Source: an uncultured Methanosarcinales archaeon
GTDB lineage: Archaea > Nanobdellota > Nanobdellia > Woesearchaeales > JAGLXL01
DNA length: 64,000 nucleotides
Direction of reading: 5' to 3'
Assembly: GCA_964384425.1 (NCBI GenBank)
Contig: CAYLKE010000006.1
Location: 15,174-79,173, forward strand
Below are positions 2,804 to 49,633 of the stretch, one piece after another. The stretch's first letter is position 1, and every line of letters begins with the position of its first letter. Made by a program: the position numbers and the translations under genes. Under the pieces are notes generated by a model. It made no database searches. It was not told the DNA's origin and saw only the letters and a program-made list of their open reading frames with translations.

Positions 2804-5800
2804 TTAAATAAATAATAACATTGAAATAACTTTTCCAATCCATGAAGATAAAAATTCCCACACCCATGCAAATGGTCTTTTAGGTATTTCTTGTTTATCA
2901 GATAAAGGCACTTCTGGTCCTTCTATTGGAGGAGAGGTTTCTTGTGCAATCTCTCCAAATTTTTTTGCTTTACTTGGATCCAAATGAACAAATTCTGATC
3001 TTTTCAGTTCAATATAATTATCTTGTGCTCTTTTTAATTCAAAAAATATGTCATAATAACCATCTTCATCTATATCTATAAAACTTCTTTTTCCTGGATT
3101 TATTTTCCAGTACCCTACAATACCCCTATTAAATTTATCTATTATTTTAATTGTAATCTTTTCCTTAATCTCAACTACACTTATCAAGTAAACTTTTTCG
3201 GGCATATCTATCTGTATGATATTTGAAAAATAAAAATTAATATTTTCGATATAATCTCCTATTCCAATAAGATAAAATATACTTCCTGATTTTGAAGTTG
3301 AACTTATCGTTTCTGTTGGTGTTGGAAATGCACCTAAAGTTGTTGTATTTGTATCAGTTGTTGTTTCATTAGTTATTTTTATATTTACTTTGTTTGTTTC
3401 TGCATAACTTCCATTAAAAAAAGCAAAGAACTCCCAAGTTGTTTCTGGTGTTCCATTTACTTTAACTTCCCAAGTTATATCACATGATTCTCCACCAGGA
3501 AGATTTTCTAAACATGAAATATCTGTTCCATTTACAGGATTTTGGGAAGTAGTATAAAAAGGACTTCCACTATTCATAGGAATAACACCTGGGTCACCAA
3601 CAACAAAGTCAAGACTTTTTGTATCTGTATTTGATTCATTATCTAAAGCAACTGCAGTGCATGTATGGGTTCCTGAAACTGTTGTATTATATGGTTTATA
3701 CCATATATCTCCATTTTGATTTCCATTTCCAAGAACCACTTCTGTTGAATCAGGTAATGTAATAGTGAAGTTGACTCCTGCAATATTATTTTCAGATGTC
3801 ACATTCACAGAACAATTCATTGTTTCGTCTTTACCTATTCTTGAAGGAGAAGTGGTTATTGAATTTATGGTTACATCAGAAGATGAACTACACGAATTGT
3901 TAAAAATAAGAATCGAACCATTTGTATAAGAATGAGCTATAGTTGCAACATAAAGATAATCTTCATTACAATAAATATCTTGAATGTTATTTTCTGTAAA
4001 ATTTATTTGATCTATAATAGACCAATCACTTTTATTAACCTGAGCAATAAAACCAGCTCCGCTCCAAGAAGTATCAAAACCTCCAAAATACATAAATTCA
4101 TTATCACCTTCATTTACAGTAAAACCAGTATAACTTAAAGTAGTATCATTATAATCATGAACAACTGAATAATCAGTTTTATTCCAAACTCTCAAGAAAA
4201 CTTCACACCAATTATTACAAAGTTGTCCAACACCATAAATATAATTATCATCTACATCAACATCCATTAAATTAGCTGAGCTAAATGTGCTGAGTGTGAT
4301 TGCACTTTGACCCCAATTACTCTTATTGAAAATGTATAAATTACCACTACTATGGCCTGAAGCATAAAGATAATTTTCATCATTAGCAAGGTTTCTTATT
4401 TTTCCAGAAGCAACTGTAAGATTAAAATCATTATTGAAATTATTGCTTTTATTTAAAACAACTATTGTTGTTTGAGTTCCAAAATAAACATAATTTTCAT
4501 CAGAATATGCTGCTTGAACATTATTACTTGAATTACTTGCACTAAATATATGTTTAAAGGGTGTTGAAAAATCAGTTCTATTCCAAACAGACATAGTTCC
4601 ATCTCTCCCACCAGAATATAGATATTTTGAATCACCATATACTGTCATCATACCCCCAGTCCATTGACCATTTGATTCTTTTCCAAATTTATTAAAAAAA
4701 GAAAGATCAGTTTTATTAAAAGCAAATACATAATTTTCTGCATCATACCAATTGGAATCATCTGAAGTAGCAAATATAAAATTATCATCTGCATAAACTG
4801 AATGAGCATAAGCAGGAACAGAAATATTCTTATCGGGAAGAAATTCTAAAGGATCTAATGTTGCAATAATATCTGTGCAATTAAATCTTGAAGGAGAATT
4901 ACAAGTAACTCTTGCTGTAATATTAAAAGCACCTCCATTTTTGACATTTGTTGTGCCTTGATGAGAGGTTATTGTAGCAAGACCAATATCTCCTTTTATT
5001 ATAAACTGGCCAGATTGATATGAAGAACAACCATATTCATTACATATTTTTGCATACCAATAAAATGGATTAGCAGAAGAACTACTAACAGTGTGGGAGT
5101 TTGTCGTAATTTCTTGATTACTCTCGTAGTCTGAATAAGCTAAACATCCTGTTCTAGAATTAAAATTACAATTGGTGAATGAAGTTGAATCAGAGATTAA
5201 TAAAGTTAAATTGTTGTTGCAATTATCAGAACTCCAATTAGCAGTCCAAGTAATATTATCTCCAAATCTTGCAGGAAAGTTTCCATTTGTTTGAATGTTT
5301 GTCATAGAAGGAGAACCTCCAACAATACTAACTTTATTTGATTCTTTGTAATCCGAATAATTTTCTCCATCAAAAGCTTTTACATTAATATGCCATGTTT
5401 CTTCTTCACATGTTTCAGAATAATTTATTTCATCTAAAAATGTCATAGAAGAAGGAGTTTGGTTTTTTACTTTAAAACCCCCTAATTTTAATAAAAGTGC
5501 TTTATCAATACTTAACGAAGTATTTTCCCAGGCTCCAGTAATAATTGTTTCATCTTTATTGTTTATATCTATGTCATTAGCCCCATCATAATCAGTTACA
5601 TTAAGTATATTTGAATAAAACACCGTAGAATTAGGATATATTTTATAATAATAAATTTTATTTGAATCTGAACCAGCACTAGTATTCTGATTATTTCCTA
5701 TTACAAAAATATTGCCATCTTCATTTATTTTTAAAGATTCTATACCCACCAATGAATAAGATGGCCCAAATGTATTACCCCAAATAAGAGATATATTCCA

Positions 5801-6811
5801 AAGTTCATCTCCCGAAGAATTAAACTTAACAATACCTCCATCTGTAGTACCTGAACCACCACCAAAAAAGAAAGAACTACGAGCACAATAAATATTATTT
5901 TCATTATCTATGTCTAGTTTATTTGGAACATAAGTATCATCCCCCCATATTCTTGACCATATCAGATTTCCTGTAGAATTAAATTTTAAAATTTTGATAC
6001 CTAAACTAGTTTTATTTCTTGCAATTACTACGATGTCATCATCATTATCTATTTTTATATCTTCTAGGCTATACGAATCTATTGAAACATTCCAAATTCC
6101 ATTTCCATTAGAATCTAATTTGATAACTCTATTTGAAGTTCCAGAACTCGAAGCAATGAAAATATTTCCTTGTGAATCCAAATCAATCCCTCTTCCTGAA
6201 CTTGAAAAAGAAAAAGTTCTATTCCATTGTTTTGTACCATTAGGATAAAATTTTCCCAACCATACATGATATGCACTCAAATTAATACTTCCTGTAGCAT
6301 AAATATTGTCATTTTTATCAATAACAATATCTTCTATCCGATCTCTTCCATTTGCAGGACCATCTTCAATATAACTCCAAAGTAAATTTCCTTCATCATT
6401 ATATTTAATTAAATATAAATCTTCATTTACTGTTTTATAATTGCCTCCAATAATAACATTATCATCACTATCATGAGCTATTGCATTTCCATTTGAAATA
6501 AGTGGACTTACATTTCTAAAAATATTATATTTTTTTACATCATCCTTATACCAGAATCCTGAATAACTAACATTATCTCCATCACTATCTGTTGCTAATG
6601 CCCATGCTAATAAATTTTCATTAATCAAATTATTTCCAGAACTAGTATTAACAATTGCTTGAGATATAGAGGGCAAAGCTCCTGCAATTGATGCGCCTGT
6701 TAAATCTTTTCCTTGTATCAAGAAAAACGCAGTTATAGAAAATCCAATGAATAATAATATGAAAACAGTTGCAGCTGCTTGTGATAAATACTTATCCTCT
6801 TTTTTAGCCAT
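2804..6811 (-). CDS. giant (1335 aa) membrane-anchored surface protein with beta-propeller-type repeats
   Basis: N-terminal hydrophobic anchor (AAATVFILLFIGFSITAFFLI). Many recurring ..D..GNIY/IFxxGS.. units typical of SBBP/beta-propeller repeats. N/S/T-rich Ig-like middle regions and a C-terminal hydrophobic segment. Confidence 0.65.
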   Translation of the reverse strand: MAKKEDKYLSQAAATVFILLFIGFSITAFFLIQGKDLTGASIAGALPSISQAIVNTSSGNNLINENLLAWALATDSDGDNVSYSGFWYKDDVKKYNIFRNVSPLISNGNAIAHDSDDNVIIGGNYKTVNEDLYLIKYNDEGNLLWSYIEDGPANGRDRIEDIVIDKNDNIYATGSINLSAYHVWLGKFYPNGTKQWNRTFSFSSSGRGIDLDSQGNIFIASSSGTSNRVIKLDSNGNGIWNVSIDSYSLEDIKIDNDDDIVVIARNKTSLGIKILKFNSTGNLIWSRIWGDDTYVPNKLDIDNENNIYCARSSFFFGGGSGTTDGGIVKFNSSGDELWNISLIWGNTFGPSYSLVGIESLKINEDGNIFVIGNNQNTSAGSDSNKIYYYKIYPNSTVFYSNILNVTDYDGANDIDINNKDETIITGAWENTSLSIDKALLLKLGGFKVKNQTPSSMTFLDEINYSETCEEETWHINVKAFDGENYSDYKESNKVSIVGGSPSMTNIQTNGNFPARFGDNITWTANWSSDNCNNNLTLLISDSTSFTNCNFNSRTGCLAYSDYESNQEITTNSHTVSSSSANPFYWYAKICNEYGCSSYQSGQFIIKGDIGLATITSHQGTTNVKNGGAFNITARVTCNSPSRFNCTDIIATLDPLEFLPDKNISVPAYAHSVYADDNFIFATSDDSNWYDAENYVFAFNKTDLSFFNKFGKESNGQWTGGMMTVYGDSKYLYSGGRDGTMSVWNRTDFSTPFKHIFSASNSSNNVQAAYSDENYVYFGTQTTIVVLNKSNNFNNDFNLTVASGKIRNLANDENYLYASGHSSGNLYIFNKSNWGQSAITLSTFSSANLMDVDVDDNYIYGVGQLCNNWCEVFLRVWNKTDYSVVHDYNDTTLSYTGFTVNEGDNEFMYFGGFDTSWSGAGFIAQVNKSDWSIIDQINFTENNIQDIYCNEDYLYVATIAHSYTNGSILIFNNSCSSSSDVTINSITTSPSRIGKDETMNCSVNVTSENNIAGVNFTITLPDSTEVVLGNGNQNGDIWYKPYNTTVSGTHTCTAVALDNESNTDTKSLDFVVGDPGVIPMNSGSPFYTTSQNPVNGTDISCLENLPGGESCDITWEVKVNGTPETTWEFFAFFNGSYAETNKVNIKITNETTTDTNTTTLGAFPTPTETISSTSKSGSIFYLIGIGDYIENINFYFSNIIQIDMPEKVYLISVVEIKEKITIKIIDKFNRGIVGYWKINPGKRSFIDIDEDGYYDIFFELKRAQDNYIELKRSEFVHLDPSKAKKFGEIAQETSPPIEGPEVPLSDKQEIPKRPFAWVWEFLSSWIGKVISMLLFI

Positions 6812-6990: not shown

Positions 6991-7614
6991 TTATTCTTCC
7001 TTTTTCTTAAGTTTATAATTCTCTCCATCAAGTTCAATAAATCCCTTATCAATCATTTCATCTAATGTGTCTTCAAGTGCATCAAGTTTAATACCTGTTA
7101 TTTTGCTTAAGACTTCAGAAGAAAGATTATTTCTGCTTAATAAGAAAGTTACAAAATTAATCAATATTGCCTTTGCATTGTTATTGAGGATTTTTATCTT
7201 CATAGATGCATTTTTAATTTTTGCATCATTCTCATGCATCTTAGCTTGGAAATCATTAATATAGTCGCTAAATTCTTTTGAATTTATCTGAAATCTATCT
7301 GGTTCAATTATTTCTAAATTACTTGGTTGGTATTCAAATGCAAGATAACTTAATGTATTCATGTCTTTACAAAGTAGTTCACATTCTGCAAATGCAATAA
7401 AGATTTCTTGATCTTTTACTTTCTCTGGTTTTGATAATTTAGCTTTCAATAAATAAATATCTTCTTCATCTGTTTTTATCTTTTCAATCATTTTTTTAAG
7501 AACTTCATCTATAAAAGATTCCTCATTACCACCAACTTCGATAATAGTTCTTAATCTAATTCCACCTTCTTTGATTGTTTGATCAATCTGTTTAGGATCT
7601 GTTATTTCTGCCAT
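6991..7614 (-). CDS. hypothetical protein with a C-terminal winged-helix-like segment, immediately downstream of smc
   Basis: 207-aa ORF, same strand, 68 nt after the smc stop. The C-terminus LSSEVLSKITGIKLDALEDTLDEMIDKGFIELDGENYKL looks wHTH-like. Confidence 0.55.
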   Translation of the reverse strand: MAEITDPKQIDQTIKEGGIRLRTIIEVGGNEESFIDEVLKKMIEKIKTDEEDIYLLKAKLSKPEKVKDQEIFIAFAECELLCKDMNTLSYLAFEYQPSNLEIIEPDRFQINSKEFSDYINDFQAKMHENDAKIKNASMKIKILNNNAKAILINFVTFLLSRNNLSSEVLSKITGIKLDALEDTLDEMIDKGFIELDGENYKLKKKEE

Positions 7615-12823: not shown

Positions 12824-13174
12824 ATGGCAGTTATAAAACCAACATTAAAAGAAAATAAGAGGTATTTGCTTTATGAAGTTGAATCTGAGGATATTAATAA
12901 TATTAATCATAAAAAGATATATAATCTCATAAAAGAGACATTTCAACATTATTTTGGATTTATAGAGCTTGAAAAAGCAGGACTTATGCCTGTTGCAAAC
13001 ATATCTCAAGGAAAATATGGTGTTTTAAGAATAGAAAGAAGTTATGCAGATAAGTTAAGAACATGTTTTGTTTTTATAAAAAAAACAGGTGATAAGAAAA
13101 TATCAATAAAATCTTTGTTGCTTTCAGGTGTCCTAAATAAGATAAAAGAAAAAATAAAGGAGAAAAATGACTAA
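12824..13174 (+). CDS. rnp2: RNase P protein component 2 (Pop5/Rpp14 homologue)
   Basis: N-terminus MAVIKPTLKENKRYLLYEVES matches the KPxLRExxRYxxFE signature of archaeal Pop5. Size is 116 aa. It overlaps the cca start by 8 nt. Confidence 0.7.
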   Translation: MAVIKPTLKENKRYLLYEVESEDINNINHKKIYNLIKETFQHYFGFIELEKAGLMPVANISQGKYGVLRIERSYADKLRTCFVFIKKTGDKKISIKSLLLSGVLNKIKEKIKEKND

Positions 13175-14438
13175 TGTTAATCAAGTTTTAAGCAAAGTTT
13201 TGAAAAAGATAAAACCTTCAAAAGAAGAACAAGAACTTATAGATTCTCTTAAAGAAGGGTTAGAAAATTTAAGAATACCTGGTGCAAAAGTTTTTGTTGG
13301 TGGAAGCGTGGGTAAAGGCACATGGCTGAAAGATAATCACGATATAGATGTTTTTGTAAGATTTAATTACAGAAAATACAATAAAAAAAATATCTCAAAA
13401 GAACTTGAAAATTTTCTTAAAAAATATAGAATAAAATATGATAAATTATATGGAAGCAGATATTACTTTAGGGTTCAACTAAAAAATATATTTAAAAGAA
13501 AATTACCTAAAGATTATGTTTGTGAGTTTGTTCCAATAATTGAGATAAAAAAACCTTCTCAAGCACTTAATCTTACTGATATAAGTCCTTTTCATACTGA
13601 ATGGGTAAATAAATTACCTAAAAAATTATTAGATGAAATAAGATTAGCTAAGCATTTCTTTAAAGCAAATAGATTGTATGGTGCAGAAAGCTATATTAGG
13701 GGTTTTAGTGGGTATGTATTGGAGATACTTGTTGCACAGTATAAAGGTTTTGTCAATCTATTGGAAGCATGTCAAAAATGGAAAAATAAAGATGTTATTG
13801 ATATAAGTAAATATTATTCATCTGCTGAAAAAGCATATGAAAATCTTAATCCATCTAAAAGAACTTCTCCAATAATTGTGATAGATCCTGTTGATAAAAA
13901 AAGAAATGCTTCTGCAGCATTAGTTAAAGAAAAAGTAAAAAAATTACAGGACATTGCTAAAAGATTTTTAGAAAAACCTTCTGATAAATTTTTCAAAAAA
14001 ACAAAAACTAGTTTTGATAAATTAAAAGGAAATATTTTGTGGATAGAAGCTAAAGTTCTTAATAAAAAAGAAGATGTTGCTGGAGCTAAGCTTGTTAAGT
14101 TTATTAGATTATTAAAAAAAGAATTTAAACTATTTGGTGTAAAAGAGAATGGTTGGCAATGGGATAAAAAAAATGCACAGATTTGGCTTATTTTAGATAA
14201 GAAAAAAATCTCTTCTGAATTTGAAATGGAAGGTCCTTTAAAAGATGATAAGGAAAATGTAAAAAGATTCTGTGAAAAACATGAAAACTATTGTATAAAA
14301 AAAGATAGATATTATACAACTAAAAAAAGACCTCATATAACAATAAAACAAGTTTATGATAATTTCATAGAAAACACAGATATAAAGCAATATATTAATT
14401 CTATAGAAAAAGTCGATGTAAAGACTGAGAAAAAATAA
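13167..14438 (+). CDS. cca: CCA-adding enzyme (archaeal class I tRNA nucleotidyltransferase)
   Basis: GGSVGKGTWLKDNHDIDVFV nucleotidyltransferase motif and ..YGAESYIRGFSGYVLEILV.. block. 423 aa, the typical archaeal size. Confidence 0.9.
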   Translation: MTNVNQVLSKVLKKIKPSKEEQELIDSLKEGLENLRIPGAKVFVGGSVGKGTWLKDNHDIDVFVRFNYRKYNKKNISKELENFLKKYRIKYDKLYGSRYYFRVQLKNIFKRKLPKDYVCEFVPIIEIKKPSQALNLTDISPFHTEWVNKLPKKLLDEIRLAKHFFKANRLYGAESYIRGFSGYVLEILVAQYKGFVNLLEACQKWKNKDVIDISKYYSSAEKAYENLNPSKRTSPIIVIDPVDKKRNASAALVKEKVKKLQDIAKRFLEKPSDKFFKKTKTSFDKLKGNILWIEAKVLNKKEDVAGAKLVKFIRLLKKEFKLFGVKENGWQWDKKNAQIWLILDKKKISSEFEMEGPLKDDKENVKRFCEKHENYCIKKDRYYTTKKRPHITIKQVYDNFIENTDIKQYINSIEKVDVKTEKK

Positions 14439-17428: not shown

Positions 17429-17449
17429 TTTTATTTTTATTTTATATTT

Positions 17450-17538
17450 GCACTGGTAGTCTAATGGTTAGGATAGAGGCCTTCCACACTTTTTAGTGAA
17501 GAAAGCCTTTGATCCGGGTTCAAATCCCGGCCAGTGCA
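17450..17538 (+). tRNA. tRNA-Gly(UCC) with a 17-nt intron at the canonical 37/38 position (17487..17503)
   Basis: Hand-folded cloverleaf: acceptor GCACTGG/CCAGTGC, D arm GTCT-AATGGTTA-GGAT, anticodon stem GAGGC/GCCTT, loop CT-TCC-A[intron]A, T arm CCGGG-TTCAAAT-CCCGG. Confidence 0.85.
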
Positions 17539-17632
17539 TTTAGTGGGTTTTTATAACTTGCTTAAAAATTTCCAAAATTTTTAGTAGAATTTTTTGGTGT
17601 ATTATTAATTCAGTGGCAATTTGCAATATTAT

Positions 17633-17704: not shown

Positions 17705-17802
17705 TATTATCTTAATAGCAAGAAAGTAACTAAAATTAATTGGTGAGTTAAGCATTAACTCGCCCTAGGTCGTAAGGGCGTAGCTTTTACGTGGAAATCA
17801 CA

Positions 17803-17815
17803 GCCGTTGCATATT
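17803..17815 (+). repeat. direct repeat of the tRNA-Gly(GCC) 3' end (att-like scar)
   Basis: GCCGTTGCATATT at 17696..17708 (tRNA 3' end plus 4 nt) recurs exactly at 17803..17815. The preceding AAATC is also shared (AAATCccgGCCG vs AAATCacaGCCG). Confidence 0.6.
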
Positions 17816-17830
17816 TAATCTCTTTTCAAG

Positions 17831-18076
17831 ATGACATATAAAAAAGATGTTTTGTTTATGAATATTTTAGATAAAGTTGAAATTTCTAATTGTAAATTCT
17901 GCCCCCCTCATTATCTTCCACATAAATTGCCTTTTGGAAAGAAAATAGATGACGAACCCTGCCATTATCATAAAGCTAGATGGAGAATGATGCACCACAA
18001 ATTCTTTTGCAAATTATTGAAATGTCCTCATTATAAATATATGATTAAAAGATATAAAAAATATATTAAAAAATAA
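17831..18076 (+). CDS. hypothetical small Cys/His-rich protein (orphan)
   Basis: 81-aa ORF with CKFCPPH..CHYH..CKLLKCPH spacing suggestive of metal binding. No family recognised. Confidence 0.4.
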   Translation: MTYKKDVLFMNILDKVEISNCKFCPPHYLPHKLPFGKKIDDEPCHYHKARWRMMHHKFFCKLLKCPHYKYMIKRYKKYIKK

Positions 18077-18102
18077 TAAAACTTATAATCTCTTTTAATT
18101 AT

Positions 18103-18330
18103 TTGAAGTTTATGATTAAATATAAAAGACAATATAAAAAACCAGAAGCTAAGGATATTAATTATTCTAATTTTGTAGACATACATTCTCTTGAAATTAT
18201 GTTAGATAAACTAAATCAGAAAGATAATATGTATTTAAATAAACATTCTGAAGAAAAAAAGTATCAAAAAGAAATTCAAGAGCAAGATAAGAAATATGTT
18301 TTTGATATTGAAGGATTAGTTGATTTATGA
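18103..18330 (+). CDS. hypothetical small protein (orphan; TTG start in the track, ATG 9 nt downstream)
   Basis: 75-aa ORF only. No recognisable motif. Confidence 0.3.
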   Translation: MKFMIKYKRQYKKPEAKDINYSNFVDIHSLEIMLDKLNQKDNMYLNKHSEEKKYQKEIQEQDKKYVFDIEGLVDL

Positions 18331-18354
18331 ATAGAAATTAAAAATAAAAAATAA

Positions 18355-19284
18355 TTATTTTTTCTTGACTTTCTCAATCTTTTTCTCAAGACCTAGTTTT
18401 CTAATAAGTTCCTTGTATCTGTTTCTTATTGTTACTTCTGTAACACCTGCTACATCTGCAACCTCTCGTTGTGTTCGCTTTTCACCATTAATCAAAGCAG
18501 CTACATATAGTGCAGCAGCTGCAATTCCAGTTGGGCCTCTTCCAGATGTAAGTTCAGCATTTCTTGCCATTTCAAGTATTTCAACTGATTTTGTCTGTGT
18601 GTCTGGTCCGAGATTTAATGAAGATGCAAATCTTGCAATATAATCAACAGGATTACTTGGCATAATATTAATTTCTAGTTCTCTTGTTATGAACCTATAT
18701 GTTCTTCCAATTTCTTTTTTATCTATTCCACTTACTTCACTCATTTCTTCCAATGTTCGAGGAACTTCATGTCTCCTACATGCTGCATAAATTGCTCCTG
18801 CAACAACACTTTCCATACTTCTTCCTCTCACTAGGCCTTTTTGAACAGCCATAGTATACAAACGAGATGCTTCTTCTTCAACAGATTTTGGAAGTTTTAG
18901 ATAAGAACCTACTCTTTTTAGTTCAGCCAAAGCAACTTTTAAATTTCTTTCAATAGCTGTACTGATTCTATATTGCCATTTTCTCAATCTAAAGAATTTA
19001 TTCTTTTCTTTTTTACTAGATAACTTATAAATATCTGATTTTTGACCTATTTCTGTACCTAATCCTTGATCGAATTGTGTATAAGTCATAGGAGCTCCTG
19101 CTCTTCTCTTCTTTTGTCCATCATCTGAATCAAATTCTCTCCATTCCTGATCTGGATCAATTATTTGGTCTTCTACAACGTTTTGACAAGATCTACATAT
19201 GATTTCTCCTTTTTCATAATCATATTGAAAATCTTTGCTACCACAATATTGGCAGACTTTCTTTTTAGCTCGCATTTTTCTCAC
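18355..19284 (-). CDS. tfb: transcription initiation factor IIB (TFB)
   Basis: N-terminal Zn ribbon CQYCGS..CRSCQ, B-finger region, two cyclin-like repeats, and C-terminal HTH ..TQREVADVAGVTEVTIRNRYKEL.. Confidence 0.95.
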   Translation of the reverse strand: MRKMRAKKKVCQYCGSKDFQYDYEKGEIICRSCQNVVEDQIIDPDQEWREFDSDDGQKKRRAGAPMTYTQFDQGLGTEIGQKSDIYKLSSKKEKNKFFRLRKWQYRISTAIERNLKVALAELKRVGSYLKLPKSVEEEASRLYTMAVQKGLVRGRSMESVVAGAIYAACRRHEVPRTLEEMSEVSGIDKKEIGRTYRFITRELEINIMPSNPVDYIARFASSLNLGPDTQTKSVEILEMARNAELTSGRGPTGIAAAALYVAALINGEKRTQREVADVAGVTEVTIRNRYKELIRKLGLEKKIEKVKKK

Positions 19285-19409
19285 CTTCTAGGTAATAGTT
19301 AATTTTATATATTGATAATAGTTTTTATTTATAAATCTTTCTATTTTTTTATAAGTGTTTCGCAATCTTTTTAAAGAAAAAAGACTTTTTACTTAAAAAG
19401 GTGTTATAA

Positions 19410-20342
19410 ATGAAAATAAGTGTGATTGGAGCAGGACCCTGGGGAACAACTGTTACAAATCTAATAAAAAGAAATAATGAAAAAAATAGTGTGTATTTAT
19501 GGGCTTATCAAAAGATCCTTGACAAAAACATTATTTTAGATGAAGATATTGCTGTTTCAGAAAATATTAATTCTGTGATTTCGCATGGAGATGTTGTATT
19601 TGTTGTAGTGAATTCTAATTTTCTTGTTCAAACAATGAAAGATATTAAAGAAGATATTTCTGAAAAGAAATTTGTATTTTTAACAAAAGGATTTGTGCAT
19701 TATAATGATGAAATAATGTTGCCTAAAGATTATATCATGAAAGAATTTAATGTCAAACAAGAAAATATTGCTGTTATTTCTGGACCAAACATTGCAAACG
19801 AGATTAATGAAAAAAAGAGAACATATACTACAATTGCTTCTTATGATAAGGAATTTGCAAATAAAACAAAACAAATACTTGAAAATATTTATTTTATTCC
19901 TTTTATATCAGATGATGTTTTTGGTGTTGAGGTTGCAGGTATTGTAAAAAATCCTTATGCAATAGCATTTGGAATAGTGGATGAGATGAATATAGGAAAT
20001 AATTTTAAGTCAGCATTTATGTCACACTGTTTAAATGAGATTGAACTCATAATAAAAAAATTTAATGGAAAAGAAGAAACTGCAAAAGGAATTAGTGGGT
20101 ATGGTGATTTCTTTACAACTTGTTTTAGTGGAAGAAATAAACTTGTTGGAGAGATGATTGCAAAAGGAAAAAGCATGAAAGACATATATGAACACTTTTC
20201 TCCTCAAAAACCAGAAGGTGTTGAACAAGTGAAGATACTGGATAAGTTGATTAAAAATAAAACTAATTTACCTATATTTAGAACACTTTATTCAATCTTG
20301 TTTCATAATAAGAAGATTGAGAGTTTGTTTGATGTTATTTGA
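19410..20342 (+). CDS. gpsA: NAD(P)H-dependent sn-glycerol-3-phosphate dehydrogenase (bacterial GpsA type)
   Basis: Rossmann start MKISVIGAGPWGT, ..ISGPNIANEI.., ..GIVKNPYAIAFGI.. blocks in GpsA order. 310 aa. Confidence 0.75.
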   Translation: MKISVIGAGPWGTTVTNLIKRNNEKNSVYLWAYQKILDKNIILDEDIAVSENINSVISHGDVVFVVVNSNFLVQTMKDIKEDISEKKFVFLTKGFVHYNDEIMLPKDYIMKEFNVKQENIAVISGPNIANEINEKKRTYTTIASYDKEFANKTKQILENIYFIPFISDDVFGVEVAGIVKNPYAIAFGIVDEMNIGNNFKSAFMSHCLNEIELIIKKFNGKEETAKGISGYGDFFTTCFSGRNKLVGEMIAKGKSMKDIYEHFSPQKPEGVEQVKILDKLIKNKTNLPIFRTLYSILFHNKKIESLFDVI

Positions 20343-20367
20343 TTGTAAGATTTATATTCTTTACAGG

Positions 20368-20391
20368 AATTACCTAAATATATTTAAATAA
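20368..20391 (+). repeat. left copy of the 24-bp direct repeat AATTACCTAAATATATTTAAATAA
   Basis: Exact match to 21702..21725. Flanking similarity extends it (CAGgAATT.. vs CAGaAATT..; ..AAATAATAAA on both). Confidence 0.85.
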
Positions 20392-20443
20392 ATAATAAAA
20401 AAGCCATATTGTAATAATATTTATTAGAGCATTAAAATAAAAC

Positions 20444-20570
20444 TGCGCAAATTGAATTTTTTTATCTTAAATTTAGGATTTTAAGTATAAATAAGACTGC
20501 GCAAAGCAACACATTAATATTTGCGCAAATTGAATTTTTTTATCTTAAATTTAGGATTTTAAGTATAAAT
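20444..20570 (+). repeat. two perfect 49-bp direct repeats (20444..20492 and 20522..20570) separated by 29 bp
   Basis: TGCGCAAATTGAATTTTTTTATCTTAAATTTAGGATTTTAAGTATAAAT occurs twice without mismatch. TGCGCAAA also occurs at 20498 and 20576. Confidence 0.9.
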
Positions 20571-20590
20571 TACAATGCGCAAAACATAAA

Positions 20591-20598
20591 TTTATATA
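20591..20598 (+). promoter_or_regulatory. TATA-like box for the RelA/SpoT-domain gene (leaderless spacing)
   Basis: TTTATATA ends 21 nt before the ATG at 20620. The fourth TGCGCAAA motif lies 7 nt upstream of it (BRE-proximal position). Confidence 0.4.
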
Positions 20599-20619
20599 TT
20601 TTTAGGTTATTTATATGTT

Positions 20620-21690
20620 ATGAATTGGGCAAAAGTAAAATTTAGTAAATCAAAAGTAGATAAAGCAGGTAAAATTTTAATAGATAAAAATAGTTCTGAA
20701 AGAAATATTAATCTGGCACTCGAGGTATTAAATAATTGGAGGGCTAGTCATTCATACCCTATGCATATATTTAAAAAAAGATTAAAAAGCGTTTCTCAAA
20801 AAATTGATAAAAAATCTTTGTCTGTACAACGACTTAAAAGAGTCCCCTCTATAATTAAAAAACTTAAGAGAGTATATAAAGGTAATAAACCCACAATGAA
20901 ACTTTCTCAAATGCAAGATATAGCTGGTTGTAGAGCAGTTATTTCTAATGTTAGATTAGTTAATAAATTATATAATAATTACTATCTTAAGGGAGATATA
21001 AAACATAAAAGAATAAAAGAAAATAATTATATTATTTCCCCAAAAAAAGATGGATATAGGAGTATTCATCTTATTTATAAATACAATACTGATAGAAAAG
21101 GAAAAGAAATATATAATGGTTTGCTAGTAGAAATTCAGATAAGATCAAAATTACAACATATTTGGGCAACTGCTGTAGAAATTGTTGATTTTTTTACAAG
21201 ACAAGGAATTAAATTTAACAAAGGAAAAAAAGAATGGGTCTATTTTTTTAAATTAGTTAGTTCTGCATTTGCAAAAATAGAAAAATGCCCTCCTGTTCCA
21301 GATACACCAAATGATGATAAAATTCTTTACTTACAAATAAAAGAAGCAGAAAAAAAATTACAGGTTATAAAAAAAATGGAACAATGGACAAAATCGATAA
21401 GACTTTTTGAAACTGCAAAGAAACCAAATAGTCATTTTTTTCTTTTGGAACTAGATTATCTGCAAGAAAAATTAAGTATTTCTTCTTATCCAAAAAATGA
21501 GGAAGAAAAAGCTATTTCAGATTATAATCGTGCTGAAAAAGTATATCGGGGAATGAAAGAGTATGATGTTGTTCTTGTTGGTGCTGATGATACAGGAGAT
21601 TTAAGAAAAGCTTATCCTAATTATTTTGTTGATACTAAAGAATTTTTAGATTACTTGAAAAAGATATTAAAGAAATTAGATAAATTTTGA
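20620..21690 (+). CDS. RelA/SpoT-homologue synthetase-fold protein (small alarmone synthetase / toxSAS-like) with a ~165-aa C-terminal extension; CapRel-like fused architecture
   Basis: Ordered RSH synthetase motifs: RLKRVPSIIKKLKR, MQDIAGCRAVI, KKDGYRSIHLIY, LLVEIQIRSKLQHIWATAVE. No HD hydrolase, TGS or ACT regions. The C-terminus ends ..DVVLVGADDTGDLRKAYPNYFVDTKEFL.. Confidence 0.8.
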   Translation: MNWAKVKFSKSKVDKAGKILIDKNSSERNINLALEVLNNWRASHSYPMHIFKKRLKSVSQKIDKKSLSVQRLKRVPSIIKKLKRVYKGNKPTMKLSQMQDIAGCRAVISNVRLVNKLYNNYYLKGDIKHKRIKENNYIISPKKDGYRSIHLIYKYNTDRKGKEIYNGLLVEIQIRSKLQHIWATAVEIVDFFTRQGIKFNKGKKEWVYFFKLVSSAFAKIEKCPPVPDTPNDDKILYLQIKEAEKKLQVIKKMEQWTKSIRLFETAKKPNSHFFLLELDYLQEKLSISSYPKNEEEKAISDYNRAEKVYRGMKEYDVVLVGADDTGDLRKAYPNYFVDTKEFLDYLKKILKKLDKF

Positions 21691-21701
21691 TACTTGGCAG
21701 A

Positions 21702-21725
21702 AATTACCTAAATATATTTAAATAA
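21702..21725 (+). repeat. right copy of the 24-bp direct repeat; also provides the TATA-like element 21 nt upstream of metG
   Basis: Exact match to 20368..20391. Confidence 0.85.
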
Positions 21726-21746
21726 TAAATTTTATTTTCTAATACT

Positions 21747-23828
21747 ATGGAAAAAGACGAACTCATAACAACAAAAAAACCAATATTAGTGACATCAGCA
21801 TTAATCTATTCAAATGGAGATATGCATGTAGGTCATTTAGTGGAATATATACAGACAGATGTATTTGTAAGAGCATTAAGAATGATGAATAAAGATGTTG
21901 TTTATATGGGTGCGTCAGATATGCATGGAACTCCTATTGAGGTAAAAGCTCATGAAAAAGGCATTCCTCCATATGAATTTGCATTAAAATATCACAAAAA
22001 GAATCAAGAAGTTTATAATAAATATGACATAAGTTTTGACAATTATCATAGTACTCATTCAGATGAAAATAGGCAGTTGGCTGAAAATTTCTTTAAAATA
22101 ATGAAAGAAAAAGGTCTTATTTACAAAAAAGAAATTCAAACAGTTTATTGTCCTCATTGTGAAAGAAACTTACCTGACAGATTTGTGAAAGGAACATGTA
22201 ATAATTGTGGAACAGATGATCAATATAGTGATATTTGTGAAAGCTGTCATAAAGCACTTACTTTTAAGGATTTATTACATCCTAGATGTGTATTGTGTGG
22301 AAAAACACCAATTACAAAAATGACAGAACATTATTTCTTTAAGCTAAGTGAATTCGGAGATAAATTAAAAAAATGGATAACAGAACATCCTAAACTTCAA
22401 CCTGAGATGAAAAATAGTGTAATGGGTTGGATAGATAAAGGATTAGAAGATTGGTGTATAAGTAGAGAAGGACCTTATTTTGGATTTAAGATTCCTGGAG
22501 AAGATAATCTTTATTTTTATGTCTGGATGGATGCACCAATAGGATATATTTCATCTACTGTAAATTATTGTAATAAAAAAGGATGTAATTGGGAAGATTA
22601 TTGGAAAGGAGATAAAGCACATATTATACATGACATTGGAAAGGATATTACTTATTTTCATTTCTTATTTTGGCCAGCTATGTTAATGGCAACAGGACAT
22701 AATGTTCCTTATGAAATGTTAGTGCATGGATTTTTGACTGTGAATGGAAAGAAAATGAGTAAGAGTAGAGGGACTTTTATAACTGCTGATGAATTTGCAT
22801 CAATGTATGATCCAGAGTACATTAGGTATTATTATACAAAAATTCTAAGTAAAAAACTTGCAGACATTAATCTTGATTTTAAAGATTTTGTTGACACAAT
22901 AAACAATGAACTTATTGGGAATATTGCTAATTTTAATTACAGGATAATGAACTTTACAAAATCTAAATATGATTCAAAGATAGATGTTGAAACTGATTTT
23001 AAATCATTTAAAGAATATGTTGACAAAATAGATAGTCTTAAAGAAGAGATAATGAATAATTATGCAAATTGGAATTTTAAAGATGTTATGAAAAAAATAA
23101 ATGAAATGTCTTCTATTGGAAATAAATTATTTCAAGAAAATGAACCTTGGAAAGATGTTGAAGGAAAGAAAGAAGTTGTATTGTTGTGTTTGAATATTAT
23201 GAGAAATTTAAATATTTTAATTAAACCAGTAATGCCAAAATACTCTGCTAGGGTAGAGAAACAATTTAATGAAAAAGATTTAACAATAAAAGATTGGAAT
23301 TGGAATTTCAAAGGAGAAATTAATTTTACAAAAGAAATTCTTGATAAAATTGAAACACCCGATATATTTAATTTTCCAGCAAATATTAAAGTTGCACAGA
23401 TTGAATCTGTAGAAGATCACCCTAATGCTGATAAACTTTATGTGATAAAAGTAGATATTGGTGGAGAAAAGAGACAGATTGTTGCAGGAATGAAACCTTA
23501 TTATCCTAAGGAAGCATTAATTGGAAAGAAAATAGTTGTTGTTACAAATCTTAAACCTGCTAAATTAAGAGGAGAGAAAAGTGAAGGGATGTTACTTGCA
23601 GCAGAGGATGTGGATGGAAAAGTTTTGATAATAGAAGCTCCAAAGTCTCCTTCTGGAGAACAAGTAATGATTTCTGGATATAAGATTAATGAAGAGCAGA
23701 TTGATTTCAAGGAATTTAGCAATATTGGAATAAAAGTAGATAATAAAAAAGTAAATTGGCAGAATATAACTTTGAGAACAAATCAAGAAGATCTTGAAGT
23801 TGATATGGTTAAAGGGGATGTTAGATAA
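21747..23828 (+). CDS. metG: methionyl-tRNA synthetase with a C-terminal Trbp111/EMAPII-like tRNA-binding domain
   Basis: HVGH (HIGH) motif, KMSKSRG motif, Zn knuckles CPHCER..CNNCG..CESC..CVLCG, and C-terminal ..HPNADKLYVIKVDIGGEKRQIVAG.. Confidence 0.95.
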   Translation: MEKDELITTKKPILVTSALIYSNGDMHVGHLVEYIQTDVFVRALRMMNKDVVYMGASDMHGTPIEVKAHEKGIPPYEFALKYHKKNQEVYNKYDISFDNYHSTHSDENRQLAENFFKIMKEKGLIYKKEIQTVYCPHCERNLPDRFVKGTCNNCGTDDQYSDICESCHKALTFKDLLHPRCVLCGKTPITKMTEHYFFKLSEFGDKLKKWITEHPKLQPEMKNSVMGWIDKGLEDWCISREGPYFGFKIPGEDNLYFYVWMDAPIGYISSTVNYCNKKGCNWEDYWKGDKAHIIHDIGKDITYFHFLFWPAMLMATGHNVPYEMLVHGFLTVNGKKMSKSRGTFITADEFASMYDPEYIRYYYTKILSKKLADINLDFKDFVDTINNELIGNIANFNYRIMNFTKSKYDSKIDVETDFKSFKEYVDKIDSLKEEIMNNYANWNFKDVMKKINEMSSIGNKLFQENEPWKDVEGKKEVVLLCLNIMRNLNILIKPVMPKYSARVEKQFNEKDLTIKDWNWNFKGEINFTKEILDKIETPDIFNFPANIKVAQIESVEDHPNADKLYVIKVDIGGEKRQIVAGMKPYYPKEALIGKKIVVVTNLKPAKLRGEKSEGMLLAAEDVDGKVLIIEAPKSPSGEQVMISGYKINEEQIDFKEFSNIGIKVDNKKVNWQNITLRTNQEDLEVDMVKGDVR

Positions 23829-23909
23829 TTTATTATTTCTTTAATTTTATTCACTAAGTAGTAGTTATAAAACGAAATATTTAAATATAAACGGCTTTTT
23901 CTTTTATTT

Positions 23910-25142
23910 ATGGATCCAAAAACAATCAATGGTAGAAAGTTAGATTTGAAGTATTTTGATGATATTAAAAAGAAGATAGAATTTGATAGTATGACTTCTA
24001 AGGATCAAAAAAAAGTTGAAAGAACAATAAATTATATCCTAAATAATGATCAGACAAGAAATAGTTTTAATAAATCATTCGATAAACTTGAAGATAAAAT
24101 GCTTACTGTTAAAGGAGCAGAGGTTCTAGAAAAAAATGAAGCATATGAATGTTTTGAAAAAGCAGCAAAAAGAGCAAAATCAGAAAATAAAATTATTGTA
24201 AATAATTCTATATACGATAAAGAAACCAAAAAACCTATATCTAATATTGTTGTTGCAGATATTTTTGATGCAGGTGGAATGGGATCAGTCTATAAGGCAA
24301 AAATTGACTTTTCAAAAACTAAAACAACACTTGATGATTTTATTCAACCTATGGTGGATGATATGAAAAATAATCATTCTTGTACAGAATATGTTGCTAG
24401 GGAAAGCATAAAAAAGAATTTACATAATATGAAAGCATTATGGGGAGAAAAACTGGATCTTGCAATTAAGATAATTCACGATACTACTGAAAGAGCAAAA
24501 AGAGAAAGAGATCTTGAAGGAGAATATCATTCCAAACTCATTACACCTTTTAAGGCAGGTCTTACTGTTGGGGGGAGGACATATCTTGTAATGCCTTTAG
24601 TAAAAAATAAAATATCTTTATCAGGTATTAGATCTTTATCATATAAATCTAAAATGAAAATTGTTTTAGATGTTTTAGAAGGATTAGAATATTTAAAAAA
24701 TGAAGGTATGATACATCGTGACATTAAACCAGATAATATTCTTGTAACAAAGCATTATGAAGATAAAAAAATAAGTTTTTTAGGAAAATTATTTGGAAAA
24801 GATTCTAAAAAAGAAAAAGCAAATGCTTATCTTATTGATTTTTCTCTTATAAAAAGTGAAGGTAGTCAACTAACATCCAAAAGAGATATAATGGGTTCTC
24901 CAGATTATATATCTCCAGAACAAATAAGGTCAACAAAAGATGCTGATGAAAGAGATGATATCTATTCACTAACCGCAACTCTTTATAACTATTTAACTGG
25001 CTTAAACCCAAATCATAATTGTCCAAGAAATGATGCAACTTCACACATGGCAAACACTCTTTCACGTATAGAAAATTCAGATGTAAGACCAGCCTTATCA
25101 ATGTCGATAAATACACAGCAATGGTTCTTGCAAAAGGTATGA
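23910..25142 (+). CDS. Hanks-type Ser/Thr protein kinase, N-terminal region plus catalytic core (reading frame ends prematurely)
   Basis: Gly loop DAGGMGSVYKA, catalytic lysine LAIKII, HRDIKPDNIL, DFS (DFG variant), GSPDYISPE, DIYSLTATLY. The ORF stops before subdomain XI. Confidence 0.8.
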   Translation: MDPKTINGRKLDLKYFDDIKKKIEFDSMTSKDQKKVERTINYILNNDQTRNSFNKSFDKLEDKMLTVKGAEVLEKNEAYECFEKAAKRAKSENKIIVNNSIYDKETKKPISNIVVADIFDAGGMGSVYKAKIDFSKTKTTLDDFIQPMVDDMKNNHSCTEYVARESIKKNLHNMKALWGEKLDLAIKIIHDTTERAKRERDLEGEYHSKLITPFKAGLTVGGRTYLVMPLVKNKISLSGIRSLSYKSKMKIVLDVLEGLEYLKNEGMIHRDIKPDNILVTKHYEDKKISFLGKLFGKDSKKEKANAYLIDFSLIKSEGSQLTSKRDIMGSPDYISPEQIRSTKDADERDDIYSLTATLYNYLTGLNPNHNCPRNDATSHMANTLSRIENSDVRPALSMSINTQQWFLQKV

Positions 25143-25489
25143 GAATAAAAGAAAATGGAAATAAAAATAATTCTCGTTATCAATCACTTAAAGAATTAAG
25201 AGAAGACATATGTGATTTAATGAATCATGAAAAACCAGAACATGCATATTCTTCTGCAAAAAATTCACCTGGTTCTACTGATAGATTTATATTGGATGTT
25301 TTTAGACAATATGAAAAACCCCAATCAGGATGTATGGGTTGTTTAAAAGGATGTGCTGTAGCTTCTGTTTTAGGATTAGCAATTGGTTATGGAGCATATA
25401 AGTTACCTAATATCAAAAAAGAAGTTGATAAAGCATATAAATTAATCAAACCTTATGTTGAAGAAGTTAAAAAAATAATATCTGAATAA
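25121..25489 (+). CDS. continuation of the kinase in the -1 frame (subdomain XI-like ..NSRYQSLKELREDI..) plus a C-terminal TM anchor
   Basis: MVLAKGMRIKENGNKNNSRYQSLKELREDICDL resembles the ..vl.kal.kdP..Ry.s..el..dl end of Hanks kinases. TM segment AVASVLGLAIGYGAY. This frame is open from 25034 and overlaps the previous ORF. Confidence 0.5.
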   Translation: MVLAKGMRIKENGNKNNSRYQSLKELREDICDLMNHEKPEHAYSSAKNSPGSTDRFILDVFRQYEKPQSGCMGCLKGCAVASVLGLAIGYGAYKLPNIKKEVDKAYKLIKPYVEEVKKIISE

Positions 25490-25491
25490 AT

Positions 25492-25818
25492 TTAATACAT
25501 TTTTTTAAGTTTTTTAATACTGTTCTCGACGTATTTTATAGTTTCACAAATATCTGTAATCTTTTCATCATCTTTTAATTTTCCAGCTATTCTATAAACC
25601 TCATCTCTGTATCTTTCAAAACCTTCAGAAAGTTTTTGTGCATTTAAATAATCGCAATTTTTTGTTATTATTTCCCATGCATTCTTGTCAGAATATTCTA
25701 GTTTTTTTGCGACTTTAATTATTTTTGGAGCATCCAATACCTCACTACCATAATGAAAACCAACCTCACTTATTTCATTACACATATCATAATCATCTAT
25801 TTTTTCATTTAAACTCAT
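25492..25818 (-). CDS. hypothetical protein
   Basis: 108-aa ORF, helical-looking, co-oriented with and 5 nt downstream of 25824..26306. Confidence 0.5.
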   Translation of the reverse strand: MSLNEKIDDYDMCNEISEVGFHYGSEVLDAPKIIKVAKKLEYSDKNAWEIITKNCDYLNAQKLSEGFERYRDEVYRIAGKLKDDEKITDICETIKYVENSIKKLKKMY

Positions 25819-25823
25819 TTAGA

Positions 25824-26306
25824 TCATCTCCTTTTTTTGGATTTTTTCTTAGTACTTGTCTTTTTACTTTTCTTTTTTCCAGTAGTTTTTTTACTTTTCT
25901 TTTTACTTTTCTTTTTAGAAGATTTATTTGATTTCTTAGTACTTGTCTTTTTACTTTTCTTTTTTCCAGTAGTTTTTTTACTCTTCTTTTTACTCTTCTT
26001 TTTAGAAGATTTATCGTCTGTGTTGTCTTTTGTTTCAGGAACAACTATTTCAACATAATCTTCAGGAGTGACTTTTTCATCATCTGTCTTAATAACTGAT
26101 TTATTTAGTTCAATGTTCTTTTTTGATTGTTTAATTGCTATATTTAACAATGATTTATTTTTCTCTCTTAATTCATCAATAATCTGATTTTTTCTGTCAA
26201 TATGTTCTCTAAGAACTTTTCTCATTTTTTTGTATTTTCTTCTAGATACTTGTTTTCCATAAAATAGTTCAAATATTGTTTTTAACATTTTAATATTTTG
26301 AATCAT
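25824..26306 (-). CDS. hypothetical protein with coiled-coil N-terminus and a tandemly duplicated lysine/serine-rich tail
   Basis: The tail KSSKKKSKKKSKKTTGKKKSKKTSTKK occurs twice, encoded by an 87-bp tandem duplication. Confidence 0.55.
   Translation of the reverse strand: MIQNIKMLKTIFELFYGKQVSRRKYKKMRKVLREHIDRKNQIIDELREKNKSLLNIAIKQSKKNIELNKSVIKTDDEKVTPEDYVEIVVPETKDNTDDKSSKKKSKKKSKKTTGKKKSKKTSTKKSNKSSKKKSKKKSKKTTGKKKSKKTSTKKKSKKRR
25845..26014. repeat. 87-bp tandem duplication (2 copies, 2 mismatches) inside CDS 25824..26306
   Basis: TTTCTTAGTACTTGTCTTTTTACTTTTCTTTTTTCCAGTAG.. restarts exactly 87 nt later (25845 vs 25932). Confidence 0.85.
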
Positions 26307-42844: not shown

Positions 42845-42968
42845 CCCTCCTTAGTTTAGCGGCTAGAACGCTCGGCTGTAGAGTGGTTTGACAGGACATA
42901 ATGTCTAGAATGATTAACCATCAGTCGCGGTCACCGAGATATCCCCGGTTCGAGTCCGGGAGGGGGGA
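42845..42968 (+). tRNA. tRNA-Tyr(GUA) with a 51-nt intron (42882..42932); genomically encoded CCA follows (42969..42971)
   Basis: Acceptor CCCTCCT/AGGGGGG (C1:G72, the archaeal/eukaryal Tyr identity pair), anticodon stem CTCGG/CCGAG, loop CT-GTA-G[intron]A, T arm CCCGG-TTCGAGT-CCGGG. Confidence 0.85.
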
Positions 42969-49562: not shown

Positions 49563-49633
49563 TTTGTATTTCCTCTTCTTTTTATTTATATATTTTATGT
49601 TAATTATCAATTAATCATTAATATTTTTGTTGT

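Follow-up and report, generated by a model that had tools for sequence, protein, structure and literature searches.

A CapRel-type fused toxin-antitoxin gene, probably inserted as a cassette between gpsA and metG, in a DPANN-type archaeon

A 64,000-nucleotide stretch of DNA from an uncultured archaeon (contig CAYLKE010000006.1 of assembly GCA_964384425.1, positions 15,174 to 79,173; referred to here as the window) was analyzed around one open reading frame (ORF) that lies at 20620-21690 on the plus strand and encodes a protein of 356 amino acids. We conclude, with a probability of roughly 0.7, that this ORF is a fused CapRel, a one-protein antiviral toxin-antitoxin, and that it was inserted as a cassette in a DPANN-type archaeon. 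The reference proteins of this kind are CapRel SJ46 from Salmonella phage SJ46 and CapRel Ebc, which are fused toxic small alarmone synthetases (toxSAS) that act both as tRNA pyrophosphokinases and as antiviral sensors (PDB 7ZTB, 9ERV; PMC9712102). The papers searched describe CapRel for bacteria and phages only (PMC3153485, PMC7229694, PMC9712102). A sequence-only reading of the window had already proposed a CapRel-type single-polypeptide toxSAS at this position and had supposed that CapRel is uncharacterized in DPANN-like archaea. The literature searches agree with the latter point, as they link CapRel to neither DPANN nor archaea, and the former is borne out by the full-length alignment to CapRel SJ46, the fold, the catalytic and interface residues, the YXXY motif, and the lack of a partner ORF.

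The likeness to CapRel SJ46 spans the whole protein. In a phmmer search of the PDB the best matches were the CapRel SJ46 entries 7ZTB and 9ERV, with amino acids 5-348 aligned to 12-368 at an E value of 5.7e-44, while RelQ and RelP were matched at ~1e-10 over about 115-120 amino acids of the synthetase domain only. The BLASTP identity to CapRel SJ46 is 32%. The top Foldseek matches were again 9ERV and 7ZTB, with TM-scores of 0.69-0.74 over ~360 columns, and the next ones were small alarmone synthetases over ~185 columns. The PADLOC model PDC-S33 matches the window protein over its full length (6e-120), and because CapRel SJ46 matches the same model (2.5e-86), PDC-S33 can be equated with the CapRel family. 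PHROG 4773 also matches over the full length. A search with Pfam RelA_SpoT (PF04607) gave a match of 1.2e-15 over amino acids 70-184, and the subfamily placement sides with CapRel. Placement with the housekeeping RelP/RelQ enzymes failed, as the RelQ-type YjbM equivalog of NCBIfam (NF053588) scored 52.4 bits against a cut-off of 320.

The ORF carries all four of the synthetase motifs that had been quoted for it, and its parts are as follows.

20620-21207, plus strand: toxSYNTH (RelA/SpoT-type nucleotide pyrophosphokinase) domain, amino acids 1-196, from Pfam RelA_SpoT and the alignment to 7ZTB
21208-21414, plus strand: linker/anchor helices, amino acids 197-265, with AlphaFold2 helices at 203-220, 233-247 and 249-265
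21415-21585, plus strand: pseudo-zinc-finger sensor and antitoxin domain (pseudo-ZFD), amino acids 266-322, with AlphaFold2 strands at 271-279, 284-291 and 315-321 and a helix at 292-308
21586-21690, plus strand: C-terminal anchor with the YXXY neutralization motif Y332-P-N-Y335 (nucleotides 21613-21624), and the stop codon

The linker helices align to the inter-domain helices of CapRel SJ46. In the AlphaFold2 model, for which 63 homologues served as input, the pseudo-ZFD has three beta strands, the second separated from the third by a helix, which is the topology known for CapRel SJ46 (PMC9712102), and amino acids 266-356 contain no cysteine. The model has a pLDDT of 83.5 and a pTM of 0.78. 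It differs from the open crystal forms by a root-mean-square deviation of 5.6-6.8 A, which is compatible with a different domain arrangement without proving one. The protein does not end in KEFL, as had been stated, and instead runs on to DYLKKILKKLDKF. The absence of HD hydrolase, TGS and ACT domains was described correctly, since RelA_SpoT is the only Pfam match, and the protein does not classify as a long RelA/SpoT homologue (Rel/RelA/SpoT). The same is true of the absence of a separate antitoxin gene. There is no ORF of at least 20 amino acids in 20343-20619, and only 11 nt separate the stop codon from the repeat described below; a small antitoxin ORF was rejected for the cassette as a whole at the same length threshold.

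The roles of the functional residues in CapRel SJ46 have been defined (PMC9712102), and they were mapped onto the window protein through the alignment.

SJ46 R79, window R71: ATP/adenine coordination
SJ46 R116, window R105: ATP/adenine coordination
SJ46 Y155, window Y146 (nucleotides 21055-21057): G-loop tyrosine
SJ46 V338, window V318: interface
SJ46 L339, window L319: interface
SJ46 A341, window G321: interface, with glycine in place of alanine
SJ46 A351, window A331: interface
SJ46 Y352 and Y355, window Y332 and Y335: YXXY motif

All of these residues are invariant or nearly so in the alignment of the 63 homologues, with R71, R105 and Y146 invariant. The segment KAYPNYF of the window protein aligns to KAYPNYF of CapRel SJ46, and Y332, P333, N334, Y335 and F336 are invariant as well. 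On every feature that sequence and predicted fold can address, the ORF is a fused CapRel. We infer its activity, autoinhibition and trigger by analogy with the characterized proteins.

The likeness to CapRel SJ46 covers length (356 against 373 amino acids), domain order (toxSYNTH, anchor helices, cysteine-free pseudo-ZFD, C-terminal YXXY helix), the conserved catalytic and autoinhibition residues, the single-gene layout without a partner antitoxin, and membership in the same PDC-S33 and PHROG families. The window copy differs in its low identity (32%), in its archaeal host, and in a promoter with a B recognition element and TATA box (BRE/TATA) that is apparently leaderless, whereas CapRel SJ46 belongs to an enterobacterial prophage. 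The clade of the window protein also has upstream GCGCAA boxes that CapRel SJ46 does not have, its sensor domain is not hypervariable, and the window gene probably lies on a small insertion with a long target duplication instead of in a prophage. The bicistronic toxSAS (CapRel/ATcapRel of Mycobacterium, PhRel, FaRel2 and PhRel2; PMC7229694) share the toxSYNTH fold and likely share the chemistry, the transfer of pyrophosphate from ATP to the CCA end of tRNA. Their antitoxin is a separate gene, whereas it is fused in the window protein and there is no second ORF. RelQ and RelP (PDB 5DEC, 6EWZ) have the synthetase fold of the N-terminal ~185 amino acids, but they lack the C-terminal antitoxin domain and have a different product and role, and the window protein is far under the NCBIfam cut-off for them.

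The gene is located between gpsA and metG, both of which were confirmed by Pfam, and is flanked by a direct repeat.

19410-20342, plus strand: gpsA, NAD-dependent glycerol-3-phosphate dehydrogenase, the left flanking host gene (Pfam NAD_Gly3P_dh_N and NAD_Gly3P_dh_C)
20350-20396, plus strand: upstream copy of the direct repeat, exact core 20368-20391, with the TATA-like element TTTAAATA
21684-21730, plus strand: downstream copy of the direct repeat, exact core 21702-21725, with TTTAAATA at 21716-21723
21747-23828, plus strand: metG, the host gene on the right flank, for a methionyl-tRNA synthetase that has a tRNA_bind domain at its C terminus (Pfam tRNA-synt_1g, 8.7e-144)

The downstream copy is the functioning promoter of metG, its TTTAAATA preceding the ATG of that gene by 31 nt, and the upstream copy is a displaced duplicate of the metG promoter region. 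The exact 24-mer AATTACCTAAATATATTTAAATAA is found at 20368-20391 and 21702-21725 and nowhere else in the window, even with up to three mismatches allowed, and 100 shuffles gave no match. Its spacing was correctly described: it lies 25 nt past the gpsA stop, 11 nt past the ORF stop and 21 nt ahead of the metG ATG. The weaker similarity reported around it extends the alignment to ~47 nt at 83% identity (20350-20396 against 21684-21730), and the left edge of the downstream copy, a weak match, overlaps the last codons of the CapRel ORF. The mismatches between the copies are confined to the edges in a non-random manner (P=0.014). With tandem and tRNA repeats set aside, the 24-mer is the sole dispersed exact repeat of at least 21 nt in a scan of the whole window, and for this reason it is not a common or recurrent promoter word, which speaks to a concern raised with the original proposal. 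The remaining exact repeats are tandem coding repeats, two tRNA-Gly genes, a 78-bp tandem duplication and two low-complexity 20-nt pairs. Removal of one copy together with the insert leaves a compact gpsA-metG spacer, as predicted, of 70 nt.

A second assembly, made independently from the same sample (run SRR15425353, Logan contigs), shows both junctions of the cassette as well. One contig (L086) corresponds to window 17765-20473 and another (L001) to window 20541-25874; these are exact matches that carry one junction each, and the break between them falls only within the 78-bp tandem duplication. Beside the cassette, gpsA is of the bacterial NAD-dependent type although the host is an archaeon; archaeal lipids normally derive from glycerol-1-phosphate. 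The gene that comes next after metG, at 23910-25142, encodes a Ser/Thr protein kinase of eukaryotic type (Pkinase, PK_Tyr_Ser-Thr).

The same type of signature recurs at loci that carry homologues of the window gene. The longest exact match between 400 nt upstream and 200 nt downstream of the gene was determined at 71 loci including the window, and 110 other genes of at least 250 amino acids in the same DNA served as controls. Exact flanking repeats of at least 18 nt (18-61 nt) were present at seven of the 71 loci, the window and six homologue loci, and at none of the 110 control genes (Fisher p=0.0012), for which the longest exact match was 13 nt. The maximum local-alignment score among the controls was 21.5.

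Window: exact repeat of 24 nt
L019: exact repeat of 61 nt, local-alignment score 99
L046: exact repeat of 41 nt, score 41
L030: exact repeat of 38 nt, score 59
L028: exact repeat of 28 nt, score 36.5
L023: exact repeat of 22 nt, score 37
L008: exact repeat of 18 nt, score 24

Another locus, L077, reached a score of 32.5, and further flanking repeats were found at L096 (~123 nt) and L094. Altogether, eight homologue loci besides the window have flanking repeats of ~22-120 nt (the weakest 18 nt exact), and the sequence is different at each. The repeats consist of host sequence. In L019 the repeat (3715-3833 and 5070-5188) corresponds to the 5' end of an RNase H-like gene that lies downstream; in L030 (3762-3850 and 5085-5173) it is the first ~90 nt of the downstream gene tag, with an in-frame TGA in the upstream copy; and in L096 (5647-5769 and 7080-7203) it is the 3' end of the upstream epimerase gene plus spacer. 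The downstream copy starts 0-44 nt past the stop codon and the upstream copy ends 100-370 nt ahead of the ATG. The 17,722-bp contig L019 (also L087) is filed in IMG/VR as the giant-virus genome GVMAG-S-1041346-124; its neighboring genes look cellular and the label may be a binning error.

L096 carries the closest homologue of the window protein (71% identical), and its repeat copies are identical at 85 of 87 positions in the core. The related organism represented by L099 has an epimerase that is 92% identical and the same gene order, with the CapRel gene missing and the repeated segment, ~90-120 nt of host DNA, single (5900-6170). L096 and L099 are thus an occupied and an empty site for the closest homologue. 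The earlier suggestion that the repeat at gpsA-metG comes from a target duplication holds by analogy, because of the recurrent repeats at the homologue loci and the L096/L099 empty site. A site-specific integrative element was rejected, as there is no integrase, the repeat sequences differ from locus to locus, and no attachment core is shared. An insertion sequence or transposon was rejected as well, since CapRel is the only ORF, terminal inverted repeats are lacking, and the duplications are long and variable (~18-120 nt). No terminal inverted repeats were found at the ends of the window cassette, no transposase or integrase is encoded in it, and no integrase lies next to it. Across the cassette ends no common junction motif was seen. 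The 11-mer TTGGCAGAAAT at window 21694-21704 occurs as (C/T)TGGCAGAAAT at 7162-7172 and 5729-5739 of L096; it is found nowhere else in a consistent position, and its candidacy as a shared recombination motif was dropped as probably a coincidence.

Mismatches cluster at the edges of a perfect core not only in the window but also in L019 (P=0.02) and L030 (P=0.009). This pattern fits Campbell-type, or ends-in, recombination better than a clean duplication followed by random decay. The nearest comparison is with integrated elements that rebuild the end of their target gene (e14 and phage 21 in icd, for example) and with integrants from a Campbell-type single crossover. The CapRel insertions resemble these in their direct repeats of host sequence with an identical core and diverged edges, and in the displaced pseudo-fragment (the in-frame TGA in L030) that accompanies an intact target gene. 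They differ in that the CapRel element is a single gene of 1.3 kb without an integrase and with a different target at each locus.

The cassette also carries its own upstream region, the conserved boxes and internal duplication of which were overlooked in the sequence-only reading.

20397-20619, plus strand: regulatory region of the cassette, upstream of the gene, free of ORFs and of known RNA families
20444-20586, plus strand: 78-bp tandem duplication, copies 20444-20508 and 20522-20586, 94% identical with 49 nt exact

GCGCAAA boxes are located at 20445, 20499, 20523 and 20577 (-175, -121, -97 and -43 relative to the ATG), with one more on the minus strand at 20520-20526, and these five are the only matches in the window. 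The box was also considered as a general host promoter motif and rejected, given that all matches in the window are in the cassette and that the box is not tied to other genes in the homologue loci. A TATA-like element, TTTATATA, at 20591-20598 precedes the CapRel ATG by 29 nt, from which the CapRel mRNA would be leaderless. The 78-bp duplication gives the regulatory region a further copy of one of its modules, a box with its spacer, and its copy number is less certain because the second assembly breaks there.

Among 80 metagenome loci, the close clade (52-68% identical) usually has coding-strand GCGCAA at -128, -96 and -43 from the ATG, at a density of 5.2 per kb upstream versus 0.26 per kb elsewhere. 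The conserved upstream region of the clade is ~130 nt long, a weaker box is often present at about -12, and the architecture is common to about 40 homologue loci. In L004-L050 and the window the nearest box abuts AAAGATTTAAATA. At 39 loci TTTA(A/T)AT comes 5-8 nt behind that box and ~29 nt ahead of the ATG, which is an archaeal BRE/TATA at leaderless distance. Two loci, L093 (bacterial, in a candidate phyla radiation (CPR) context; 5780-6000) and L096 (5800-6000), have the same box followed by TTGAC instead of BRE/TATA. This -35-like hexamer suggests that the promoter was refitted after transfer between domains. The boxes are absent upstream of CapRel SJ46 and in the GC-rich bacterial clade (38-44% identical), and the box was accordingly rejected as a family-wide CapRel feature. 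The gene and a conserved regulatory region of ~130-220 nt, with three or four phased GCGCAA(A) boxes, move together as a unit of ~1.3 kb.

The boxes of one locus vary together. Each box of the sister loci L020 and L028 reads GCCCAAAA, and in one other lineage the ACC prefix is missing at every box. We read the boxes as putative operator sites for one DNA-binding factor. Because they travel with the gene across domains and vary in concert, our hypothesis is that this factor may be the CapRel protein itself. A structured RNA or RNA antitoxin in the upstream repeats was considered and rejected. RNAalifold on 24 upstream regions gave no conserved structure (-3.6 kcal/mol, trivial GCGC pairing only), and Rfam found nothing credible in the non-coding parts of the cassette, the 228-nt upstream spacer included. 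At L007, two more boxes lie downstream of the CapRel-like gene (3485-3550) with no ORF after them; they may be a remnant of the regulatory region of a second cassette.

The gene had been presented as a rarity, and this proved incorrect, as it belongs to a large and highly conserved clade (60-70% identical) that many DPANN and CPR assemblies contain and that the papers searched do not discuss. Of the 4,957 relatives from the protein search, the best 120 are without exception full length, with identities of 62-71%. Their named sources are Nanoarchaeota, Pacearchaeota, Aenigmarchaeota, Nanohaloarchaea, assemblies labeled only "archaeon", and Kuenenbacteria and other Patescibacteria. An exhaustive search gave 1,392 clusters (50% identity) at an E value of at most 1e-30. 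One homologue, P0012 (69% identical by BLASTP and 67% by MAFFT), is in an unambiguously bacterial context with a penicillin-binding protein transpeptidase, DnaX and an OmpR/HisKA pair. Judged from these sequences, the clade crosses the boundary between archaea and bacteria. The window GpsA has nothing above 44% identity, compared with 62-71% across hosts for CapRel, and this fits horizontal spread. The best GpsA relative (44%, from a Woesearchaeota assembly) is without gpsA-metG synteny, and the host has no close relative in the collections; a scan of genome contigs for methionyl-tRNA synthetase (MetRS) gave only distant bacterial matches (29-31%). The phage collection contained only SJ46-type relatives that are 32-33% identical, and IMG/VR contained one close copy, on the same contig as L019.

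Taken with what is known for CapRel SJ46, the following mode of action is proposed. At rest, the C-terminal pseudo-zinc-finger domain would fold back, by homology to CapRel SJ46. A viral protein (the major capsid protein in the case of SJ46) would bind the pseudo-ZFD and keep it open, and the opened enzyme would then move pyrophosphate from ATP to tRNAs at their 3'-CCA end. Aminoacylation and translation would stop and the infection would abort. As for its origin at this locus, the unit would have entered the gpsA-metG spacer and duplicated ~24-47 nt of the metG promoter in doing so, which would have left the essential metG with a promoter. The identical core and diverged edges of the repeats, in the window and at the homologue loci, point to recombination of an intermediate, either circular or ends-in and bearing a short target-like stretch, as the way of integration, and not to a transposase. 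About 6 kb upstream of the cassette, at 13167-14438, the window encodes a class-I (archaeal) CCA-adding enzyme; the tRNA 3' end that it produces is what one would expect a CapRel-type toxin to block.

Three other explanations were weighed. The protein could be a housekeeping small alarmone synthetase of the RelP/RelQ type that makes (p)ppGpp or (pp)pApp, with its C-terminal part an ordinary regulatory extension. RelA_SpoT is indeed its only Pfam domain, the YjbM GTP diphosphokinase is its only NCBIfam match, and RelQ and RelP structures match its N-terminal domain. We nevertheless regard this as highly improbable. The NCBIfam score of 52 bits is far from the cut-off of 320, the RelQ/RelP matches are ~34 orders of magnitude weaker than those to CapRel and cover the synthetase part only, and the C-terminal 160 amino acids align residue for residue to the CapRel antitoxin domain, YXXY included. 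The cassette has no hydrolase partner, and both the insertion signature and an identity across hosts far above that of a housekeeping gene argue against this role. It is slightly less improbable, though still hard to credit, that the direct repeat is not an insertion scar and that the gene is an old resident, with the repeat a local duplication of the metG promoter that was recruited for the gene, or a product of chance or of assembly. The upstream copy holds a complete TATA-like element able to fire into the cassette, the GC content of the cassette matches the genome, no empty gpsA-metG site was found, and most homologue loci have no repeats. Repeats of unrelated sequence nevertheless recur at homologue loci and never at the 110 control genes, the closest homologue has its occupied and empty pair, and both junctions were reproduced in the second assembly. 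The upstream copy is moreover 228 nt from the ATG, whereas a conserved promoter that belongs to the gene lies 29 nt from it.

The gene could also be a selfish mobile toxin-antitoxin or addiction cassette without an antiviral role, which spreads among DPANN and CPR organisms and is hard to lose, with the boxes for autoregulation or mobility. This is the least improbable of the three, although we still consider it unlikely. The flanking duplications and the empty site are evidence of mobility, the gene, together with its promoter region, shows high conservation between unrelated hosts and between the two domains, the concerted change of the boxes is what a cis element would show if its binding factor travelled with the cassette, and the sensor domain is without arms-race hypervariability. 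A fused toxin-antitoxin, however, cannot give classical post-segregational killing through an unstable antitoxin, no recombinase or transposase is encoded, and the fused CapRels studied experimentally are all phage-triggered defence proteins (PMC9712102, PMC11578894, PMC13423816). The interpretation of the gene as an antiviral CapRel on an inserted cassette also has to accommodate several results that weigh against it. The collections searched yielded no candidate trigger from a virus of DPANN archaea, and within the clade the pseudo-ZFD varies no more than the other parts of the protein do (entropy 0.89 against 1.06-1.15 in neighboring regions), so that the arms-race signature reported for enterobacterial CapRel is not seen here. 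The empty site for the gpsA-metG insertion itself was not found in the collections searched, and exact-protein look-ups of GpsA and MetRS led to one sample only. By its GC content of 25%, compared with 27% in the window, the cassette does not stand out as foreign, and clear flanking repeats are present in only about 10% of the homologue loci.

A bolder extension of the antiviral CapRel interpretation, which we offer tentatively and consider doubtful, is that the unit is a self-contained defence cassette that moves between DPANN and CPR organisms. Its operator array, with a BRE/TATA behind the nearest box in archaeal hosts and a -35-like TTGAC in bacterial ones, would be bound by CapRel itself, for example through the zinc-finger-like domain in the manner of toxin-antitoxin autoregulation, and it would spread as a small circle or ends-in fragment without a recombinase of its own, leaving target duplications of ~20-120 bp. 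If true, a self-contained cassette would move between two radiations of ultra-small episymbionts. CapRel is among the few immune proteins with a known direct viral trigger, and the work so far has been on enterobacterial and prophage copies. Through the DPANN/CPR clade, this design of a sensor and effector in one protein reaches organisms of minimal genome whose viruses and defences are poorly known. The pseudo-ZFD is a concrete bait for finding proteins of DPANN viruses, and the box array together with the long target duplications provides a tractable case of single defence genes that move between distant hosts, domains included.

The rest of the window is consistent in its markers with an archaeal host. 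It encodes TFB, the class-I CCA-adding enzyme, an ELP3 homologue and a ProRS with the archaeal/eukaryal C-terminal domain, as well as SMC and an intron-bearing tRNA, and its GC content is 27%. Two large minus-strand ORFs, at 2804-6811 (1,335 amino acids) and 49634-51514 (626 amino acids), have no Pfam match at an E value of at most 1e-5. Tandem repeats inside ORFs, both of them lysine-rich low-complexity coding sequence on the minus strand, are located at 48507-49610 (107 nt exact at 207-nt spacing, plus several shorter copies) and at 25824-26306 (51 nt exact at 87-nt spacing). The tRNA-Gly(TCC) gene at 17449-17539 is 91 nt long, and a 124-nt tRNA gene at 42845-42968 was found by Rfam and not by ARAGORN; both probably carry archaeal introns.

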